NCBI GenBank assembly: GCA_000996355.1
Contig: LCAH01000007.1
Location: 1 to 11,088, forward strand
Direction: 5' to 3'
Length of the DNA: 11,088 nucleotides
DNA from: Candidatus Uhrbacteria bacterium GW2011_GWC2_41_11
GTDB taxonomy: Bacteria; Patescibacteriota; Patescibacteriia; UBA9934; GWF2-40-263
This document shows positions 952 to 9,303 of the stretch, piece after piece. Each line of letters begins with the position of its first letter. Position 1 is the stretch's first letter. The notes under the pieces are model-generated. The model was not told where the DNA came from. It did not search any database and worked only from the letters and a program-made list of their open reading frames with translations. The position numbers and the translations under genes were made by a program.

Positions 952-2115
952 TTATTCGGTCTGGAGTAATGCCCAAACATTCAGAACAGATGAGGCATTG
1001 GCAATGCCTCCTTGAGAAAAGAAACTGTGACCGGTTTCTCCAAAAGGAATTTCTTTTCCATCTCCCTGAATGAGAAAATATCCTCCGGTTTCGTCGCAGA
1101 TTTTTCCTGTGTTCCACTTATGAACCTCACAGATTTCTTCCGGGGTCATAAACGGATCATCTGCAGCAGCGATCGTGAAGGTTTTGTAGGTATACAACGT
1201 TTCGGACGGCGCAAACGGTCTTTGAAACGAGAGGTTCAGACCAACCATATCCGCGGCGGCCGTGAAGGACTCCGGAAAATTCCAGGTTCCAATTTCCTCC
1301 AAAGACGGAGATGTTGTCATGAGTCCGCCATTCGGGAGAGAATAGAACATGGTTTGAGAAATAGCGTCTCTCAGGATGATTTCAATACCATCCTCTGTAT
1401 TCCGGAGATAAGGGGTCAGTTCTCGCATGGCCGTACTTGTGAGGACATATCCATACAATCCTTCCGCATATGCCCAAGAGGTTTCAGAAAGCGGCACGGG
1501 TGCGATTTCCAGAATACGTTCAATACCGTATGTGTGAAAACTGGCTCTGGATAATTCCAGCTCGTATTCCATCACAGGCAACATTTGTCCGGCCATGGAA
1601 TGAACAACCATGGTATCCAATGGATGGAAGAATGGACTTGCCGGATCACTCAGAGTTTCCAGGAGATCAATTTCCGCATCAATGAATTCGGAGAGTCCGA
1701 TCTGACCATATACAGCATCAGATGGAACCCCGCTTTCTCCATGTCCCGGATGTGCAACAAGGAGAATGCCTTTCAGTCGGCAAGACTCAGGCATAGCAAG
1801 CCGTGCTTCCGCATATTTAAGAAAGATAAGCGGTGCGTTGGTAAAGCCGTGAAATTCGATTGACCACCCCTTTGCATCGCTACAGGCATAGGGATTAGGA
1901 ATTTCCAATACCTGCATATCAAATGCATTCTTATATCCTGTCATCGAGACCGGAATACGCAGGTCTTTTGTTAAAAACGAATCAGCAGGTTGTTTTTGAA
2001 GAATTTGCTGACTTTTTTCATTGGTTTCTTTCGGGTCTCCACACCCAATTGTAAAGGAAGAGAAACAACCAAAAACCATCAACACCCAAAACAGCATTTG
2101 TTTTTCGTGCAGCAC
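952..2115 (-). CDS. Secreted lipoprotein with alpha/beta-hydrolase-fold motifs (putative esterase/lipase-like hydrolase)
   Basis: Long ORF 952-2148. The N-terminus has a signal peptide with lipobox (MLFWVLMVFGCFSSFTIGC-G). An HG oxyanion-hole-like motif (ILLVAHPGHGESG) is followed about 66 aa later by a nucleophile-elbow-like VVHSMAG (GxSxG-like). The start is ambiguous: GTG at 2115 has a GGAG 5 nt upstream, ATG at 2097 gives the signal peptide directly, and ATG at 2148 is the longest. Confidence 0.7.
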   Translation of the reverse strand: MLHEKQMLFWVLMVFGCFSSFTIGCGDPKETNEKSQQILQKQPADSFLTKDLRIPVSMTGYKNAFDMQVLEIPNPYACSDAKGWSIEFHGFTNAPLIFLKYAEARLAMPESCRLKGILLVAHPGHGESGVPSDAVYGQIGLSEFIDAEIDLLETLSDPASPFFHPLDTMVVHSMAGQMLPVMEYELELSRASFHTYGIERILEIAPVPLSETSWAYAEGLYGYVLTSTAMRELTPYLRNTEDGIEIILRDAISQTMFYSLPNGGLMTTSPSLEEIGTWNFPESFTAAADMVGLNLSFQRPFAPSETLYTYKTFTIAAADDPFMTPEEICEVHKWNTGKICDETGGYFLIQGDGKEIPFGETGHSFFSQGGIANASSVLNVWALLQTE

Positions 2116-2147
2116 AGCTTCTCCTTTTGTATTAAGTTTACAGACCA

Positions 2148-2172
2148 CTTTCTCGTGATATACACGAGAAAG
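2148..2172. promoter_or_regulatory. Perfect 10-bp inverted repeat with 5-nt spacer (ctttctcgtg-atata-cacgagaaag) in the divergent promoter region between the lipoprotein gene and the 2308 gene. Candidate operator for a dimeric transcription factor.
   Basis: Read directly: 2148-2157 is the exact reverse complement of 2163-2172. Confidence 0.45.
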
Positions 2173-2805: not shown

Positions 2806-2835
2806 AAGATTGTTCTTTTTTTGAAAGGAAAGACT

Positions 2836-3372
2836 ATGAAGATTACCAGAGAAATGCTTTCCGAATCTTTGAAAACGATTCTCGATATGTTGGTGAAAGA
2901 TGCCAATCTGCCTGAACGCATGCGTTGGGGAACGCATGTTCAGGTGAGAGATATGTCTATTGGCGCGGGTGCTATGGGACGTTTCATTGATGGGATCTTC
3001 GAAGTATCTGTGGGTGAAAATACCTGGGTCTTTGATGGAAACATAAGTGAGACGTCTTGTTACATTGGTTGGAATGTGGAAATTGAAACTGAAACCGGCT
3101 CGGTCACAGCTGTGCCAGTCATGAAGACACATTATAAGAGCGGACCAAAACCTCTCGATCCTGTATTGTTCGGTTTTGAACCACGAACCATTGGATCTTT
3201 GGGTCCATTGCGTCGATTTATTCCGTCCAGCGATGATGATGATCTGAGAGATCAAATAGATCTCGTCATCAAGAATTATGGTTTTTCTTTTGTGTATGGA
3301 ACACTAGAGGAAGTTCGTCGAGGTCGTGCAATATTGTACAAATGCTTGAGTGGATTTATCCATTCAACTTAA
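2836..3372 (+). CDS. Hypothetical protein (178 aa)
   Basis: ATG at 2836 with AAAGGAAAG RBS, 30 nt after the previous stop. The ORF track starts this frame at TTG 2821; the ATG has the better spacing. It ends at TAA 3370-3372, immediately followed by a strong terminator. Confidence 0.6.
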   Translation: MKITREMLSESLKTILDMLVKDANLPERMRWGTHVQVRDMSIGAGAMGRFIDGIFEVSVGENTWVFDGNISETSCYIGWNVEIETETGSVTAVPVMKTHYKSGPKPLDPVLFGFEPRTIGSLGPLRRFIPSSDDDDLRDQIDLVIKNYGFSFVYGTLEEVRRGRAILYKCLSGFIHST

Positions 3373-3400
3373 AAACCACCTTTTCGGTGGTTTTTTCTTT
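3372..3400. terminator. Bidirectional intrinsic terminator shared by the convergent genes ending at 3372 (+) and 3415 (-)
   Basis: Stem aaaaccacc (3372-3380) pairs with ggtggtttt (3386-3394); loop is ttttc. It is flanked by an A-run and a T-run (T6 then T7). Confidence 0.85.
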
Positions 3401-3414
3401 TTTTAAAGGAAAAA

Positions 3415-4245
3415 TTAAACACGATCACGTAATTGTTTTTCACCTGGTCCAAATGTTTTGTGATCTTGTTTGCGGCGTGGATTTTGACGGAGATCTTTTT
3501 CTTGTTTTGCGAGAAAAGCAAATCGTCTCGCATCTATTTTATCCGAATATTCATACGCGGTTCGGAATGTCTCAAGAAATGCGGGGATTTCAACTTTTCC
3601 GTTTGTTGGAATCCAATCCTCGTCATTTTGTTGAGTCCATCCGGCTGATTCAATGGCGGAAACCTGTGCCTGATCCGCAAGATAAAGAGCAAGAACATCC
3701 GTAATTTCCATTGCTGTTGCCAATCCTTCCTTTCCTTGCATTTTCTCTTTTTGCAGTTTGTGATCTAAATCTACTAACTTTGATTTTCTTTTATCCATTT
3801 CTTGTTTCAATTCCTGTTTTGTGGCTCGTAGATCTACTCCTTTCTCAGTCAAAACTTTTTCATATCCTCTGATTTCTCCTAAGAATGCTTCTGCCTTTTT
3901 TGTATCGGCCTCTATCTGAAATCCGCTTTCCAAAAGTGCTTCAAATTTTTTTTCTTGTATTTTTCTTTCCTGATCCGCTTCTGTTGGTTCTTGATGTGAT
4001 TCGAACTGTCCTGTTTTTCTTCGTGGGAGAGTCGACAGTTTTGCAGAAACAAGATCAATAGCCTTTCTCATTTTTTCTAAAACGCCATGTAAACGATTTT
4101 TTTCTTTTTCCGTTTCCTGTGTTGCTTCTTTGAAGCGTTCTCCTAATCTTTCCTGGTCACTTTTTTCCACTCGTTTAATAACCTCCTTTTCCGCCGGTTG
4201 TTGTGGTCTTGTTTCTCCTTCTCCTCCGCTTTTAAAGAAAGCCAT
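3415..4245 (-). CDS. Hypothetical coiled-coil protein (276 aa), highly charged K/E/Q-rich
   Basis: Single long ORF with heptad-like E/K-rich segments (EKEKNRLHGVLEKMRKAIDLV..., KQELKQEMDKRKSKLVDLDHKLQKEK). A GGAT RBS-like sequence sits 6 nt upstream of the ATG at 4245. It ends at the shared terminator. Confidence 0.6.
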   Translation of the reverse strand: MAFFKSGGEGETRPQQPAEKEVIKRVEKSDQERLGERFKEATQETEKEKNRLHGVLEKMRKAIDLVSAKLSTLPRRKTGQFESHQEPTEADQERKIQEKKFEALLESGFQIEADTKKAEAFLGEIRGYEKVLTEKGVDLRATKQELKQEMDKRKSKLVDLDHKLQKEKMQGKEGLATAMEITDVLALYLADQAQVSAIESAGWTQQNDEDWIPTNGKVEIPAFLETFRTAYEYSDKIDARRFAFLAKQEKDLRQNPRRKQDHKTFGPGEKQLRDRV

Positions 4246-4283: not shown

Positions 4284-4481
4284 ATGATACCAAACCATAT
4301 GACACCAGAACAAATGGAAGAACTCCGGCTTGAGTATGAACGCATTGGAGAACGCATGCGGGAGCTTGCGGAAAAAGCAACAGACCTTGAGAAACGAATG
4401 TTTGATGTTTTGAAGGAAATCATGAAACAGGAGGATAACGAAAAAATAGAAGAAATTCGAAAGAATATTCTCGGAGGATAA
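4284..4481 (+). CDS. Small hypothetical helical protein (65 aa; an alternative start at ATG 4299 gives 60 aa)
   Basis: The amino-acid composition is typical of real alpha-helical proteins (EQMEELRLEYERIGERMRELAEKATDLEKRMFDVLKEIMKQ). The antisense frame (4232-4513 minus) is Ser/Phe/Arg-rich low-complexity, which is typical of the wrong strand. There is no clear RBS. Confidence 0.4.
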   Translation: MIPNHMTPEQMEELRLEYERIGERMRELAEKATDLEKRMFDVLKEIMKQEDNEKIEEIRKNILGG

Positions 4482-4579: not shown

Positions 4580-5383
4580 ATGGACATTATCATCGGTCAA
4601 GAAATTGGTGAATATCGCACTGAATCCCTTGTTGCGCGTGGAACAAATTCAACCATTTATAGAGGCACTCATCTTCTCATGGGAGAGGAAGTTTGTCTCA
4701 AGCGGTATGACCTTGACATAAAGCCTGCAATTCCGATTGGGGAAGCGGATGTTTTGTCACGGTTGCAACATACGGAGATTCCAAAATTTCGGAATCTTCT
4801 TTCGTTAAAAGATGATTCTTATGTGGTTGTCACGCATTTCGTTTCCGGTTCCCCATTGGGTCAAGCCGTGCAAAAGCACGGAAATATGGATCCGGAAATC
4901 GTGGCATCATTCTTGGAGAGAATGTTGCATTTGCTCAGATATATGCATGTAGATCAGAGATGTGTGCATGGAGACATCAAGCCAGAGCATATTTTGGCAA
5001 GGACTGATCATTCGATTACGCTTGTTGGATTCGGCGTTGCGGAATTTTCTTCTGGAAATTGGGAAAAGAATCGAGGGTGGACAGACTTGTTCGCTCCACC
5101 AGAACAAGTTGAGGGTCGTCCGCTTGTTCCACAGATGGATCTTTACGCACTTGGAATGAGTATGGTGTATCTGCTCTGTGGTGGAAACGAGGAACAATTT
5201 AAGAATGGAGAAATTCCGGACGAAGTCCCCGACCCTATGGGACGATTCCTCTCTCGTTTGGTCATGAAGGATCCTGCCAAACGTTTGAACTGGACGCAGA
5301 TGGATCTTTTCAAGGAGTGGGTGGAGATCCGTTTCGAGTGTTTCAAGAGGTCGACGACAGAAGGAAAACTACTCTTTCTTTGA
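4580..5383 (+). CDS. Hanks-type (eukaryotic-like) Ser/Thr protein-kinase-fold protein with degenerate catalytic motifs. Possible pseudokinase or atypical kinase.
   Basis: ATG 4580 is preceded by AGAGAAGGGGAAAACA. Kinase subdomains appear in the canonical order: beta3 Lys (EVCLKRY), helix-C Glu (EADVLSRLQH), catalytic loop HGDIKPEH (HRDxKxxN with R to G and N to H), GFG in place of DFG (LVGFGVAEF), APE-like (FAPPEQVEG), and subdomain IX (DLYALGMSMVYLLCG). The glycine-rich loop is degenerate (ARGTNSTIYRG). It is a stand-alone 267-aa domain with no signal peptide or TM segment. Confidence 0.8.
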   Translation: MDIIIGQEIGEYRTESLVARGTNSTIYRGTHLLMGEEVCLKRYDLDIKPAIPIGEADVLSRLQHTEIPKFRNLLSLKDDSYVVVTHFVSGSPLGQAVQKHGNMDPEIVASFLERMLHLLRYMHVDQRCVHGDIKPEHILARTDHSITLVGFGVAEFSSGNWEKNRGWTDLFAPPEQVEGRPLVPQMDLYALGMSMVYLLCGGNEEQFKNGEIPDEVPDPMGRFLSRLVMKDPAKRLNWTQMDLFKEWVEIRFECFKRSTTEGKLLFL

Positions 5384-5396
5384 GTGATCTGACATG

Positions 5397-5425
5397 AGGA
5401 TTTCCGGCACGGAGATCCTTTTTTC
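5397..5425 (+). terminator. Intrinsic terminator after the kinase-like gene
   Basis: 9-bp stem 5398-5406 pairs with 5410-5418 (one G-U pair); loop is gca; followed by T6 (5419-5424). Confidence 0.7.
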
Positions 5426-5474: not shown

Positions 5475-5512
5475 GATGTGTTTCTTAAAACTGAATAAGG
5501 AAGGAGAAAGAA

Positions 5513-6529
5513 GTGTCGCGAGGAGGAACTGATTATGACCGTGACGTGTCGGATCGGTCCATGCGAACGAGTAGTGGCTTTACCACAGTCGCAGAGGAAG
5601 CGATGGCAACACGACAATGGTTCGACCCTGCTCTGTTGCCAAAAGGGAGAGTGATCAAGACACTTTGCAAGAGCCCGATCGCTCTTCCATTTGATGTAAC
5701 CGGATCCTTGGGGGGTCTCGCCAAGATCACCTATGACAAAATGCCCATGACTGCCGGAGAACTCAAGAAGCGTTCCTATCTTCAGGACTGTCAGATTTGT
5801 CCGATCGCGGTCGGAGATGTTGTTTCCGACAGAGGACCGCTCCAGATCGGGGAATTCGTCGTTCCGCGGGAACTTGACAGTTATCTTCAACGCCTTTGGC
5901 TCGAAGGGGGAGGTGGTCGTCAAGGATATGAGTCCTATGAATTCGTCGCCTATTTCCTTGCATACCATTGCGATATTCCAGAGGCCGACACACCATTCGT
6001 CATTTTTATAGGTGATGAACGGTTCCGGGAGGACCTTCATAGAAATGCGCTTCAAGCGTATTTCGGAGGTATTGAGCATGAAGACATGAATGCTTTCAAA
6101 GTGTTTGCCGACCTCAGGAGAAAGTTCAAGAACAATGTATTTCTGATTCACCGATATTACGATGACATGTGTACGGATAAAGAAGTCATTGACCAGTGGT
6201 CAGGAGTTCTTGGAGCCGATCACGTGATCAATCTCGGACACGGAAACGACACAGCTGTTGCAGACGTCATGCTCGGCATCTTTGCCCTGATGGGCGGGAC
6301 ACGAACTCTGGATCAGTATCTGGAAGATATGCGGGAACGCGGTCAGGATCAGACGCGTCTTGCCTTTGTTCGTAGGGCTCTGTCTGTTCTGAAGCCGCCG
6401 TCCTCAATCCAGAAAAAAGAGGAAGATGCAGATCAGTCGCAGCAGGTATTGGCGGCGGAAGAGAAGCAGAAAAGTCCGTCCCGCAAGAAGGGAAAATCCG
6501 TCTTCGATTCCTCGAATTGGGACGTCTGA
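5513..6529 (+). CDS. Hypothetical protein (338 aa) with an acidic/lysine-rich C-terminal tail. It is the first gene of the GC-elevated cassette and has no family I can assign.
   Basis: GTG start at 5513 with AAGGAAGGAGAAAGAA RBS. Composition is ordinary and GC is higher than the flanking regions. The overlapping minus-strand ORF 5447-6151 is judged spurious. The C-terminal region contains a glycine-rich turn (GIFALMGGTRTLDQYLED) that loosely resembles the PGGxGTxxE turn of LOG/SLOG-type Rossmann-like proteins. That is only a weak motif-level resemblance. Confidence 0.6.
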   Translation: MSRGGTDYDRDVSDRSMRTSSGFTTVAEEAMATRQWFDPALLPKGRVIKTLCKSPIALPFDVTGSLGGLAKITYDKMPMTAGELKKRSYLQDCQICPIAVGDVVSDRGPLQIGEFVVPRELDSYLQRLWLEGGGGRQGYESYEFVAYFLAYHCDIPEADTPFVIFIGDERFREDLHRNALQAYFGGIEHEDMNAFKVFADLRRKFKNNVFLIHRYYDDMCTDKEVIDQWSGVLGADHVINLGHGNDTAVADVMLGIFALMGGTRTLDQYLEDMRERGQDQTRLAFVRRALSVLKPPSSIQKKEEDADQSQQVLAAEEKQKSPSRKKGKSVFDSSNWDV

Positions 6530-6540
6530 AGACAATTTAA

Positions 6541-6593
6541 CCTGTGGGATGCTGGTGCTCAAAATTTTGCACTTGTCGTTCCACAGGTTTTTT
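6541..6593 (+). terminator. Intercistronic hairpin plus T6 between the two cassette genes (candidate partial terminator or attenuator)
   Basis: Outer stem cctgtgg (6541-6547) pairs with ccacagg (6581-6587). There is an inner stem gtgc/gcac (6556-6559 with 6569-6572), then TTTTTT 6588-6593. Confidence 0.4.
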
Positions 6594-6632
6594 AGAAAGT
6601 TTCGTTTTTAAGAATCAATCATCGGAGGAAAG

Positions 6633-8027
6633 ATGAATCATATCATTGGTCGCGGGATTGGACTCGGAGATGAGGGAAAGGGAAAGATCATAGCGGCCAT
6701 CGGACGGAAACTTGGCATTCGGACAGGTATACGCGACACTGGAGCCAATCAAGCCGTTCATCACCTTCCAGGACCTAATGGTATTTGGCATGGGTTTGCG
6801 CAATTTTGTTCCCATTCCTTTCAGAATGACGCGTGGACATTCCTCGCGCGGGGTATGGCGGTTGAGCTTGAGGCACTTGTGCGTGAGGCGGAAGTGCTGG
6901 TGACCAAAGGAGTCGTTGATCCTATTCGACGGGTTGTGATCGATGACCAGTGTGCGATTGTGACACCCATGCACAAAATGGTCGGACGTATGGAGGAATT
7001 GATTCGTAGGCGTGGTTCGTGCGGTATGGGCGCAGGAAGAACAATTCGCGATCGGGAGGCAGGAAAAGGAATTCGAGTTTCACATGTTCTGGACGGATCC
7101 GTTCGAGATCGGTTGCGGGAAATGGTGACAGAAACCATAGCCGAGGCGCGACAGTTACTTGAACAACATCCGACCGATGATATGCGTGCTGAATTTTCCT
7201 ATTTCATTCATCGGTGTAATCCGGACATGCTGGCCGAAACCTATGAACATATTCTTGCGTATTCTGGCGTACTGGTAGACCATGATCGTCGGTTATTTCT
7301 GCAGCGCATCCAGGAGGAACGGGTATTTTTCGAGGGGGCACATGGAACTTTGTTGGATGTCCGGTTCGGATTCCATCCGTATGTGACTCAGTCCAAGACC
7401 ACGTGGCAACATATCGAGGAGCTTGTCAGTCCTCAAATATCCTTGAAAAAACTTGGGATCTCGAGGTCTTATAGTCTTCGATATGGCATGGGACCTCTCA
7501 TAACAAAAGACCCTATCCTTTCGAAACATCTTCAGGATTCACGTAATCCTGAAGATTCTTGGCAGGGGTCAGTACACATTGGATGGCTTGACCTTCCGAT
7601 GTGGAGATATGGAATTCTGTTAAACGATCGACTCGATGGTATTGCCCTTACTTGTCTTGACCACCTAACTGGGTATCCAAGCATTCGAGTATGTACGTCC
7701 TATTTTTATGATGGAAAGCAGGACTCGCTCGATACATTCTTTGAATGGACGCGCACCAAACAAGGAACAGCCGAGATCCTCGGTTTCAAGAAGCCAGAAC
7801 TACCATTCGAGAGCGAAGAACGCACGCGGATTCTTCATCAATGTAGGCCTGGTAAGTGGATTGAATTTCCGGGGTGGAACAAGGACATCCGACAAGTAAG
7901 ACGGGTGCAAGATCTACCGAAAGCCGCCCGCAACTATGTTGACTTTCTTGAAAGCTGGGCAGGATTTGCTCTGCCCATTCGGATCATTTCGGTTGGTCCG
8001 GATGTTGAAAGCTCAATTTTTATCTGA
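6633..8027 (+). CDS. Divergent adenylosuccinate synthetase (PurA)-family GTP-dependent ligase. It is probably not the housekeeping PurA.
   Basis: ATG 6633 with GGAGGAAAG RBS. PurA motifs are present throughout: GDEGKGKI P-loop (catalytic Asp/Lys), GANQAVHH (compare GGHNAGHT), GSCGMGAGRT (compare GTTGRGIGP), FFEGAHGTLLDVRFGFHPYVTQSKTT (compare [25 protein letters not shown]), RSYSLRYGMGPL (compare KAYSTRVGAGPF), IGWLD...DGIALTCLDHL (compare TGWLD...SGFCLTKLDVL), FPGW and IISVGPDVESSI (compare IISTGPDRTETM). The aspartate-binding TTGRRRR loop is replaced by QGSVHI, and the conserved Gln of EGAQG is His. Confidence 0.85.
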   Translation: MNHIIGRGIGLGDEGKGKIIAAIGRKLGIRTGIRDTGANQAVHHLPGPNGIWHGFAQFCSHSFQNDAWTFLARGMAVELEALVREAEVLVTKGVVDPIRRVVIDDQCAIVTPMHKMVGRMEELIRRRGSCGMGAGRTIRDREAGKGIRVSHVLDGSVRDRLREMVTETIAEARQLLEQHPTDDMRAEFSYFIHRCNPDMLAETYEHILAYSGVLVDHDRRLFLQRIQEERVFFEGAHGTLLDVRFGFHPYVTQSKTTWQHIEELVSPQISLKKLGISRSYSLRYGMGPLITKDPILSKHLQDSRNPEDSWQGSVHIGWLDLPMWRYGILLNDRLDGIALTCLDHLTGYPSIRVCTSYFYDGKQDSLDTFFEWTRTKQGTAEILGFKKPELPFESEERTRILHQCRPGKWIEFPGWNKDIRQVRRVQDLPKAARNYVDFLESWAGFALPIRIISVGPDVESSIFI

Positions 8028-8093: not shown

Positions 8094-8627
8094 TTAGGGT
8101 CCGGCACAGAGCGGGGGTTCTTGATTCCGGAATTTGGTACGCAATATGAGAAGATTTTTTTTCTCCTGCTCATATGCTTCCAATTCCACGGGATCTGTCG
8201 GTAGAACAAAGATGATTGTGTTGCAGTGTTGACAATACTGGTACGTTTTTTTCTCTCTCGGATCCGCAAGAAGCGGTCGTGAGAAACTTATGACATTGTA
8301 GACGAGCTCCTCGAGTTCGTTTCTCCAGGATTCTGGGATCATCGTGTTTTGTTGGAAGGAAGCGAACCCGCAGACAGGACACTGTTCAGGGCAGACATCC
8401 GGGTTCTGGAACGAAGTAAGAGCTTGTTCCCGAATTTGTTCCGGTGTTTTTCCACGATGTTCAGCTTCGAAGGATAGGGAGCATTTATTACATCCCAACC
8501 GTTCGAGAACTTCATAAGAATACCCTGTTTGCGTGCATCGGGTATTCCAGATTCCGATGAGCCGTCCTTCTTTACATGAAGGACAAGAATGGTTCATTAG
8601 TAAACCTTTCAATTGTTCCAGACTCAT
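8094..8627 (-). CDS. Hypothetical Cys-rich protein with two predicted zinc-ribbon motifs (177 aa)
   Basis: Strong RBS AGGAGGAAACCCC before the ATG at 8627. Cys pairs CPSC(15-18)...CNKC(46-49) and CPEQCPVC(80-87)...CQHC(133-136) are spaced as in zinc ribbons. Confidence 0.65.
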   Translation of the reverse strand: MSLEQLKGLLMNHSCPSCKEGRLIGIWNTRCTQTGYSYEVLERLGCNKCSLSFEAEHRGKTPEQIREQALTSFQNPDVCPEQCPVCGFASFQQNTMIPESWRNELEELVYNVISFSRPLLADPREKKTYQYCQHCNTIIFVLPTDPVELEAYEQEKKNLLILRTKFRNQEPPLCAGP

Positions 8628-8742: not shown

Positions 8743-9303
8743 ATGAACGAGCAACTATTCGAATGGAAACAATACCGTAGATCCGAACCGATTCTCTCTA
8801 AAGAAGAGCGTACCAAAGAGCAGGAGTTACGGAATCCAAAAACGATTCTTGAATTTGTTGTGAATCAGGAAAATGGAGTTTTGACAGAAAATATCTGGGC
8901 AAAGAATGTCATCGACCCATCAGAAACCGTTTATCAATTGCTCAGGGATGAAAGAACCGGACAGCTTGCCATTATAAAATGGAAAAAAGGCGACATTGTA
9001 AAACCGCATCCTACTGAAGGATTCAAACGTGAATATGCGGAAAGCCATTATCGGACAAGTTATGGGCATGCCGGTCAATTTGAGGAAGTTGGTCTCTATG
9101 GATCTAGAACAGCCCTTCAAAAATCTATTCAAGAAGTTCGTGCCATTGGAGCAACTTATCAACCTCTTGCAGAATTGCAAAAGGCGATTGATGAAGGAAT
9201 AAGAAAACAAGATGCTGAAGATCAAGAGATGTTGGCAGGACATTCGAAATCTGAAGAAGATGGTGATGATGGACATGATTCCATGTTGGCACGCGCTGCT
9301 TAA
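8743..9303 (+). CDS. Hypothetical protein (186 aa) with an acidic C-terminal tail
   Basis: Single ORF with ordinary composition. The upstream region is AT-rich with no clear Shine-Dalgarno, so the start is less certain. It is divergent from the zinc-ribbon gene. Confidence 0.5.
   Translation: MNEQLFEWKQYRRSEPILSKEERTKEQELRNPKTILEFVVNQENGVLTENIWAKNVIDPSETVYQLLRDERTGQLAIIKWKKGDIVKPHPTEGFKREYAESHYRTSYGHAGQFEEVGLYGSRTALQKSIQEVRAIGATYQPLAELQKAIDEGIRKQDAEDQEMLAGHSKSEEDGDDGHDSMLARAA

Follow-up and report, generated by a model that had tools for sequence, protein, structure and literature searches.

A stretch of 11,088 nucleotides (nt) at the start of contig LCAH01000007.1 from Candidatus Uhrbacteria bacterium GW2011_GWC2_41_11, called the window below, carries on its forward strand a stand-alone gene for a kinase-fold protein of 267 residues (4580–5383; GenBank KKR86861.1, "Kinase domain protein", Candidatus Uhrbacteria). 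The source belongs to the Parcubacteria, within the candidate phyla radiation (CPR). The protein is a diverged member of a family in which a chaperone-recruiting J domain normally precedes a Hanks-type kinase domain; it has neither the J domain nor the two Mg ligands of its relatives, and it lies in a cassette of the PurA type. Its gene is followed there by one for a protein with a predicted von Willebrand factor A (vWA) fold (5513–6529) and by a divergent member of the adenylosuccinate synthetase family (PurA-like, 6633–8027). The family of J-domain-kinase/vWA-like cassettes is itself delineated in this analysis. We lean, with modest confidence, towards reading the window gene as a pseudokinase, a non-catalytic partner of the vWA-like/PurA-like pair. 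An initial annotation of the same DNA had pointed out the unusual catalytic motifs; the absent J domain and the two downstream partners were not mentioned in it.

Kinase fold and catalytic residues

The open reading frame (ORF) 4580–5383 is preceded by a Shine-Dalgarno-like GAAGGGG, 7–8 nt 5' of the ATG. Residues 12–241 of its product match the Pfam Pkinase model (PF00069) with an E value of 1.2e-27 and 97 bits (cutoff 31.7), which is far beyond chance. The product can be aligned along its length with the structures of AMPK, MARK and PAK. An AlphaFold2 model, for which the family alignment served as input, has a mean predicted local distance difference test score of 86.7, the activation segment (156–166) being its sole disordered part. 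The top Foldseek neighbours of the model are ordinary eukaryotic protein kinases with template modelling scores of about 0.75, and the searches against PDB and BFVD returned generic kinases only. The protein thus belongs to the Hanks-type kinase superfamily by profile match and by its bilobal fold. A Pfam scan detected no C-terminal domain on it, neither a zinc ribbon nor an OB fold.

The beta3 Lys (K41, in VCLK), the helix-C Glu (E55), the catalytic Asp (D132) and the APE motif (A172-P-P-E175) are all present where they had been reported. The catalytic loop (4967–4990, forward strand) reads H130-G-D-I-K-P-E-H137, with Asp132 and Lys134 conserved and His137 occupying the place of the Mg-binding Asn; the HGD (non-RD) context of D132 is the norm in the family. 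At the DFG position stands G150-F-G152 (5027–5035, forward strand), as located by alignments to the AMPK, MARK and PAK structures and to family members. No substitute Asp accompanied by a recognisable Gly-loop could be found: the two residues on either side of G150 include no Asp, and the acidic residues closest to it are E155 (+5) and D143 (−7). The Gly-loop itself, A19-R-G-T-N-S24 (4634–4651, forward strand), was aligned with 26 family members, where A-E-G-G-F-G is found. It has indeed one Gly, as had been noted, with the qualification that its first position is already Ala in the active-looking relatives and is not a window-specific change.

Of the features of a competent kinase, the window protein has K41, E55 and D132; both Mg ligands are absent and its loop does not follow the GxGxxG pattern. 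In bioinformatic terms, a pseudokinase is defined by the absence of at least one of the beta3 Lys, the HRD Asp and the DFG Asp (PMC12599244). The absent DFG Asp brings the window kinase within this definition. The initial proposal, of either a pseudokinase or a kinase that binds metal or ATP in a non-canonical way, is supported, and it is strengthened by the HGDIKPQN and DFG motifs of its canonical relatives. The identical amino-acid sequence is found on 16 contigs from several groundwater samples, and the DNA of four contigs compared with the window is either identical or different at 2 of 7,855 bases. The unusual residues are therefore not assembly errors, since the same sequence recurs on contigs from several samples.

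The J-domain-kinase family and its cassettes

The 27 proteins nearest to the window kinase share 33–41% identity with it (E 1e-38 to 1e-54) and are about 335 residues long; one of them is named Candidatus Daviesbacteria. In these proteins a J domain (Pfam PF00226, mostly with its HPD motif) precedes the kinase, except in one fragment and in P0021, whose N-terminal segment is alignable with the HPD lost. Their kinase motifs look active (AEGGFG, VCIK, Glu, HGDIKPQN, DFG or DYG, APPE). Relative to such canonical members, the window kinase lacks the J domain and shows the changes G22T, F23N, G24S, N137H and D150G. Of 88 positions with at least 90% conservation across the family, 50 are unchanged in it and 38 differ, and it retains the C-terminal family-specific residues R251, F255 and R257. 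Its score against the family hidden Markov model (HMM) is 230, versus 430–470 for typical members. In neighbour-joining analyses, the family together with the window protein splits from outgroup kinases in 175 of 200 bootstraps, with a terminal branch of 2.2 times the median for the window kinase and a poorly resolved sister. When 1.84 billion representative proteins were searched exhaustively with HMMER, no relative above 41% identity was found beyond the window protein's own cluster.

The missing J domain was sought with the family J-domain HMM, filters off, in a six-frame translation of the whole window, where the best score was −1.1 bits. Since this unfiltered search found nothing, the domain is missing altogether and not encoded separately. 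Full-length members with canonical motifs and no J domain exist (P0231, P0244 and P0262), so that the loss of the J domain alone does not amount to decay.

Degeneracy of the kinase is a recurrent feature of the family. About 11 of its 81 representatives have lost at least one catalytic residue, and most of these keep the J domain. Examples of such degenerate members are P0243 (HCDLNPKN, GFG), P0280 (HGAINPDH, SFG), P0219, P0222, P0241, P0263, P0265, P0267, P0336, P0343 and P0347. Because it recurs to this extent, the role of the family probably does not always depend on phosphotransfer. Most degenerate members other than the window protein have lost at least one of the equivalents of the catalytic Asp, Lys134, the beta3 Lys and the helix-C Glu. 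A Gly at the position of the DFG Asp is also seen in P0219, P0222, P0241, P0243, P0336 and the viral L143. The replacement of the catalytic-loop Asn by His, at 4988–4990 in the window, recurs in P0280 and in the viral L143, L154, L157 and L168, which hints at a selected role of this His rather than random decay.

In two representatives, P0225 and P0265, the J-kinase is preceded by an additional N-terminal segment, whose DxSxS motif resembles a metal ion-dependent adhesion site (MIDAS); in P0265 this segment matches VWA_2 weakly (23.9 bits, below the cutoff), and this protein is also catalytically degenerate (HGDIAPQN, NFK). Considered as vWA-kinase fusions of the "Rosetta stone" type, these proteins lend weak support to a kinase-vWA link, since the vWA-like segment is not detectably of the partner family.

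Downstream of the J-kinase gene, all 10 distinct genome or metagenome loci carry a gene for a pyruvate-kinase (PK)-barrel-like protein of about 310–340 residues, and in nine of them an unannotated vWA-like gene (about 315 residues) lies between the two on the same strand. This middle gene starts 5–11 nt past the kinase stop in three gene-called loci. A vWA-like gene on the same strand is also found downstream of the degenerate P0243. The window partner (5513–6529, forward strand, 338 residues) is homologous to the partners of these relatives (E 1e-21 to 1e-36) and occupies the same place, directly downstream of the kinase-like gene and on the same strand. Its vWA fold comes from structure prediction: it matches no Pfam family, including the Pfam vWA and TerY models, and a PDB sequence search with the vWA-like profile gave no meaningful match. 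A MIDAS-like motif, D61-x-T-G-S65 (5693–5707), is invariant among the vWA-like proteins, and every invariant residue is kept by the window partner.

The third gene of the window cassette (6633–8027, forward strand) matches the adenylosuccinate synthetase family (PF00709, E 4e-67). It is divergent and falls below the NCBIfam purA cutoffs (178 bits versus 395), with the GDEGKGK P-loop kept. An identity as PurZ was rejected (33.5 bits versus a cutoff of 300, with the catalytic Asp kept in GDEGKGK). When compared with the solved PurA 3hid_A, GTTGRGIGP is changed to GSCGMGAGR, GRSRRTGWLD to GSVHIGWLD and TKLD to TCLD. We take these to be the motifs that bind the phosphate of inosine monophosphate, aspartate and guanine, and the substrates of the PurA-like protein may differ for this reason. 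In the PHROGs classification, the window kinase belongs to phrog_2361, the vWA-like protein to phrog_2971 (unknown function) and the PurA-like protein to phrog_1211.

The window PurA-like gene is orthologous to PurA-like genes adjoining vWA-like genes in Parcubacteria (E 1e-96 to 1e-116). The nearest relatives of the window vWA-like gene, with 44–56% identity, are also found in Parcubacteria (L087, L088, L089 and L091), in loci with no kinase. The cassette there comprises a protein of about 225 residues (in the full-length loci), an AAA ATPase (PF00004, about 640 residues), the vWA-like protein, a PK-barrel-only protein (about 307 residues) and the PurA-like protein. The AAA ATPase thus fills the slot held by the kinase-like gene in the window, where the cassette consists of kinase-like, vWA-like and PurA-like genes, with neither an AAA ATPase nor a PK-like gene within 10 kb.

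The same genes are widespread in phages. Predicted viral contigs of IMG/VR yielded 18 close relatives of the J-kinase and 395 of the vWA-like protein, and 80 vWA-like loci were examined. A PurA-like gene is present in 64 of the 80, the arrangement with a J-kinase and a PK-like gene in 15. In 63 of the 64 PurA-type loci, the PurA-like gene lies immediately 3' of the vWA-like gene on the same strand, with a median gap of about 4 nt between the ORFs. A kinase-like gene is directly upstream in seven of the 64, always with the vWA-like gene downstream of it. For the 18 viral J-kinases, a vWA-like gene follows on the same strand in 17 loci and a PK-like gene is present in 16.

The state of the kinase tracks the identity of the third gene, canonical with a PK-barrel-like gene and degenerate with a PurA-like one. 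All 18 viral J-kinases have canonical motifs (AEGGFG or AEGAMG, the Lys, the Glu, HGDxKPQN, DFG or DYG). By comparison, the seven viral PurA-type kinases, and with them gp267 of Mycobacterium phage Dandelion, are degenerate: the catalytic-loop Lys is missing, HGD is changed to HGA or HCG, and DFG to DWC, GWS or SFY. His occupies the Asn position in four of the seven, as in the window, and one of these, L143 (HGAILPEH, GWS), also has Gly at the position of the DFG Asp. Most of the phage PurA-type pseudokinases have an N-terminal J-like segment with HPD. No PK-like ORF is found in the window, whose PurA-like gene and degenerate kinase both fit the PurA type.

The GenBank phages that encode the vWA-like protein comprise 201 Mycobacterium phages (those examined being of cluster C, Bixzunavirus), six Vibrio phages and one uncultured phage of 485 kb. 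In Dandelion, gp267 is annotated as a serine-threonine protein kinase, gp268 is the vWA-like protein ("hypothetical protein"), gp269 is small and gp270 is PurA-like. In Vibrio phage Va1, the vWA-like/PurA-like pair adjoins genes of anaerobic ribonucleotide reductase.

Some further observations concern the distribution of these genes. A contig labelled Nanoarchaeota SAG AM-311-M09 (L013) has a J-kinase, two tandem vWA-like paralogues and a PK-like gene, an arrangement due either to transfer between CPR and DPANN, to a phage or to contamination. Eukaryotic (protist) homologues of the vWA-like protein, among P0148–P0214, are fused to U-box (PF04564) or SAM domains, and these fusions suggest that it acts there as an adaptor in connection with ubiquitin ligases. 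Within the window, the G+C content is 0.47–0.52 across the vWA-like and PurA-like genes (5500–8000), versus 0.37–0.42 on the flanks, which is compatible with horizontal acquisition of this pair, perhaps from a phage.

Possible roles and further features of the window

The pseudokinase reading draws on an intact ORF, a confident model and the conservation of K41, E55, D132, K134 and the APE motif alongside the loss of both Mg ligands. The window kinase would have lost phosphotransfer. It appears as an unusual member of the PurA-type cassettes, in which phosphotransfer seems dispensable. It is much nearer to the canonical J-kinases (33–41% identity) than to Dandelion gp267 (25% over the C-lobe) and looks intermediate, its catalytic Asp and Lys being still in place. 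Partnerships between kinases and vWA proteins are an established theme, known from the TerY-P triad (PMC11090510) and from kinase-PP2C-vWA sets (PMC7159879).

The vWA-like protein would be bound, and perhaps also gated, by the kinase fold, possibly in a nucleotide-dependent manner, and may itself act as an accessory subunit of the PurA-like enzyme. With its Lys-Glu pair intact, the kinase fold might be able to bind a nucleotide even in the absence of Mg. As a working hypothesis, the vWA-like protein could be an adaptor that connects a client with exchangeable modules for effector or remodelling functions. This would fit the upstream slot occupied by either a J-kinase or an AAA ATPase, the U-box and SAM fusions of eukaryotes, and the concept of vWA domains as co-chaperones (PMC7159879).

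Several points weigh against this pseudokinase reading. The loss of activity is deduced from sequence only, and CASK, which has no DFG Asp, is nevertheless active without cations (PMC4718504). Other PurA-type pseudokinases keep a J domain with HPD, perhaps as their working part, which the window protein does not have. The kinase-like and vWA-like genes are separated by 129 nt, versus 5–11 nt in gene-called relatives and a median of about 34 nt, a rough estimate, in the viral ones. This gap includes a terminator-like hairpin (5396–5420, forward strand; 11 pairs followed by a T-run), which lies 13 nt past the kinase stop; it comes from a consensus scan that found nine sites versus 5.6 expected by chance. 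Finally, selection cannot be measured by the ratio of nonsynonymous to synonymous substitutions, because the available copies are about 100% identical in protein and DNA.

The strongest alternative, possible although clearly less probable, is an atypical but active kinase, which would transfer phosphate without Mg as CASK does, or use His137 with another metal, its target being the vWA-like or the PurA-like protein. Asp132, Lys134, Lys41 and Glu55 are indeed all kept, while most other degenerate members have lost at least one of them. CASK provides the precedent of a cation-independent kinase without the DFG Asp (PMC4718504), and the change from Asn to His in several lineages suggests selection rather than random decay. 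However, the A-R-G-T-N-S loop has lost the tip Phe and two Gly of the family, and every other PurA-type kinase-like gene has lost the catalytic Asp, so that phosphotransfer seems unneeded in the PurA-type context.

It is rather unlikely that the gene is a decaying, functionless remnant of a former J-kinase gene that has lost its J domain and catalytic residues. Such decay would account for the long branch, the 38 changed positions, the absence of a J domain in any frame, and the 129 nt with a terminator-like hairpin before the vWA-like gene, whose nearest relatives carry an AAA ATPase and no kinase. Nevertheless, nothing interrupts the 267 codons of the ORF, a good ribosome-binding site precedes it, and the kinase domain is modelled with confidence throughout, save for the activation segment. 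Structural and family-specific residues are kept, including R251, F255 and R257, and full-length canonical relatives without a J domain exist. CPR genomes are small and shed dead genes quickly, which also counts against a remnant.

A more specific proposal, which we consider unlikely, is that the His137/Gly150 site is a selected state. The protein would then be a Mg-independent sensor of purine nucleotides, or an enzyme with a new chemistry, switching a phage- and CPR-specific PurA paralogue through the vWA-like subunit. If true, this would define a new three-part module controlling nucleotide metabolism in huge phages, in cluster C mycobacteriophages and in CPR bacteria. More broadly, the fold might have been repurposed, either for another chemistry (AMPylation or glutamylation, as in SelO or SidJ) or for purine-nucleotide sensing that gates the PurA-like enzyme, which appears improbable. 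Documented cases of pseudokinase folds with a different chemistry include SidJ (PMC12599244), the gene adjoins that of a nucleotide-metabolism enzyme, and His recurs at the Asn position; on the other side, no new conserved acidic or basic cluster was identified in the protein.

The last possibility, a kinase secreted as an effector by an episymbiotic CPR bacterium to act on its host cell, had been suggested initially and is very improbable: the general precedent of bacterial eukaryote-like effector kinases and a weak, generic NCBIfam LegK1 match (17.5 bits versus a cutoff of 550) speak for it, whereas the N-terminus (MDIIIGQEIGEY...) is hydrophilic, with no signal-like hydrophobic stretch when inspected by eye without a predictor, the gene lies in a chromosomal cassette near ribosomal-protein and CTP-synthase genes, and this cassette, which is conserved, of a cytoplasmic type and also encodes a vWA-like protein and an enzyme of nucleotide metabolism, is carried by phages as well, which argues for an intracellular role.

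Upstream of the kinase-like gene lies a small helical ORF (4284–4481, forward strand, 65 residues), called by gene callers on all source contigs. It has no family match, and whether it belongs to the cassette is doubtful. Its co-transcription with the kinase-like gene, as proposed initially, is possible in view of the 98-nt gap, which contains no terminator-like site; however, none of the related loci has a homologue of this ORF. The idea that this ORF is a remnant of the J domain was rejected, as the family J-domain HMM found nothing in the six frames.

Elsewhere in the window, an ORF of 177 residues (8094–8627, reverse strand) has several CxxC pairs (zinc-ribbon-like) and no match in Pfam or NCBIfam. 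No assignment was obtained for the ORFs 952–2148 (reverse), 2821–3372 (forward), 3415–4245 (reverse; coiled-coil, rich in Glu and Lys) and 8743–9303 (forward). Where the ORFs 2821–3372 and 3415–4245 converge, there is another terminator-like hairpin between them (3371–3395; 10 pairs, flanked by T-runs on either side), which could be a bidirectional terminator. Rfam and tRNA scans of the window returned nothing. A defence system was considered and rejected, PADLOC giving only generic kinase-domain matches (PD-T4-6, mad6) and none for the vWA-like or PurA-like proteins.

Comparison with known systems

A known kinase with a comparable active site is CASK, in which the motif also reads GFG and the catalytic-loop Asn is also replaced. 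Like the window kinase, CASK has lost the DFG Asp and kept the beta3 Lys and the catalytic Asp (PMC4718504). The Asn is changed to His rather than Cys in the window. CASK also differs by its intact Gly-loop, its eukaryotic multidomain scaffold and its demonstrated activity, whereas the window protein has a degenerate Gly-loop and is known from its sequence alone.

Degraded motifs are also seen in bacterial Hanks-type domains such as ActPs1-3, GLW, CP1, DYD and DLHK (bioRxiv 10.1101/2025.01.12.632604; PMC12599244). The DLHK member listed for Pseudomonas aeruginosa resembles the window kinase in having GFG while still carrying the catalytic Asp. The retention of K41 argues against the pseudokinase families that are always without the Lys; this argument does not extend to CP1 and DYD, in which only some members are without it. 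Neither of these two sources mentions J domains, vWA partners or CPR bacteria.

With regard to gene linkage, a related theme is that of the TerY-P triad and the kinase-PP2C-vWA sets, in which a stand-alone vWA (MIDAS) protein and a Hanks-type kinase are encoded by linked genes (PMC11090510; PMC7159879). The triad is described there as a TerY-like vWA protein, a PP2C phosphatase and a kinase with a C-terminal zinc ribbon or OB fold (PMC11090510), and the kinase-vWA pair of such sets is thought to be a phosphorylation-dependent switch (Anantharaman et al. 2012, as cited in PMC11090510; PMC7159879). In contrast, no PP2C was found among the 12 window ORFs scanned or among the Pfam-marked called genes of related cassettes. 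The window vWA-like protein matches no TerY model, the kinase has no zinc ribbon or OB fold and is degenerate, and the family to which it belongs has a J domain.

The pairs formed by AAA+ (MoxR) ATPases and vWA proteins offer another parallel, since an AAA ATPase precedes the nearest vWA-like relatives, in the kinase slot. The underlying logic is that of a vWA adaptor combined with an NTP-dependent remodeller, vWA domains acting as co-chaperones of AAA+ ATPases (PMC7159879). However, the ATPase of these relatives is a classical AAA protein (PF00004), with no MoxR family reported for it, and the window has no ATPase.

A matching arrangement is that of cluster C (Bixzunavirus) mycobacteriophages, for example Dandelion gp267–gp270, with the same order of kinase-like (phrog_3043), vWA-like (phrog_2971) and PurA-like (phrog_1211) genes and a degenerate kinase. 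The PurA-like gp270 is 34% identical to its window counterpart. The kinase domains, by contrast, share only 25% identity over the C-lobe. A J-like domain with HPD is present in gp267, whose catalytic Asp and Lys are lost (HGAITPDN, DWC); the window kinase shows the reverse.

Pseudokinases and kinase-vWA pairs are thus already known kinds. J-domain-kinase fusions linked to a vWA-fold protein are undescribed in the two recent catalogues of bacterial kinases and pseudokinases and in the literature searched, in which no description of J-domain-kinase-vWA or vWA-PurA links was found. The value of the present case lies more in a widespread phage and CPR module than in one bacterial pseudokinase. It amounts to a natural experiment, the same kinase being canonical with a pyruvate-kinase-like gene and degenerate with a PurA-like gene. 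As the module is present in culturable mycobacteriophages, the vWA-like/PurA-like pair occurring in about 200 sequenced ones, the function of this pair and of a kinase fold devoid of phosphotransfer could be tested there.

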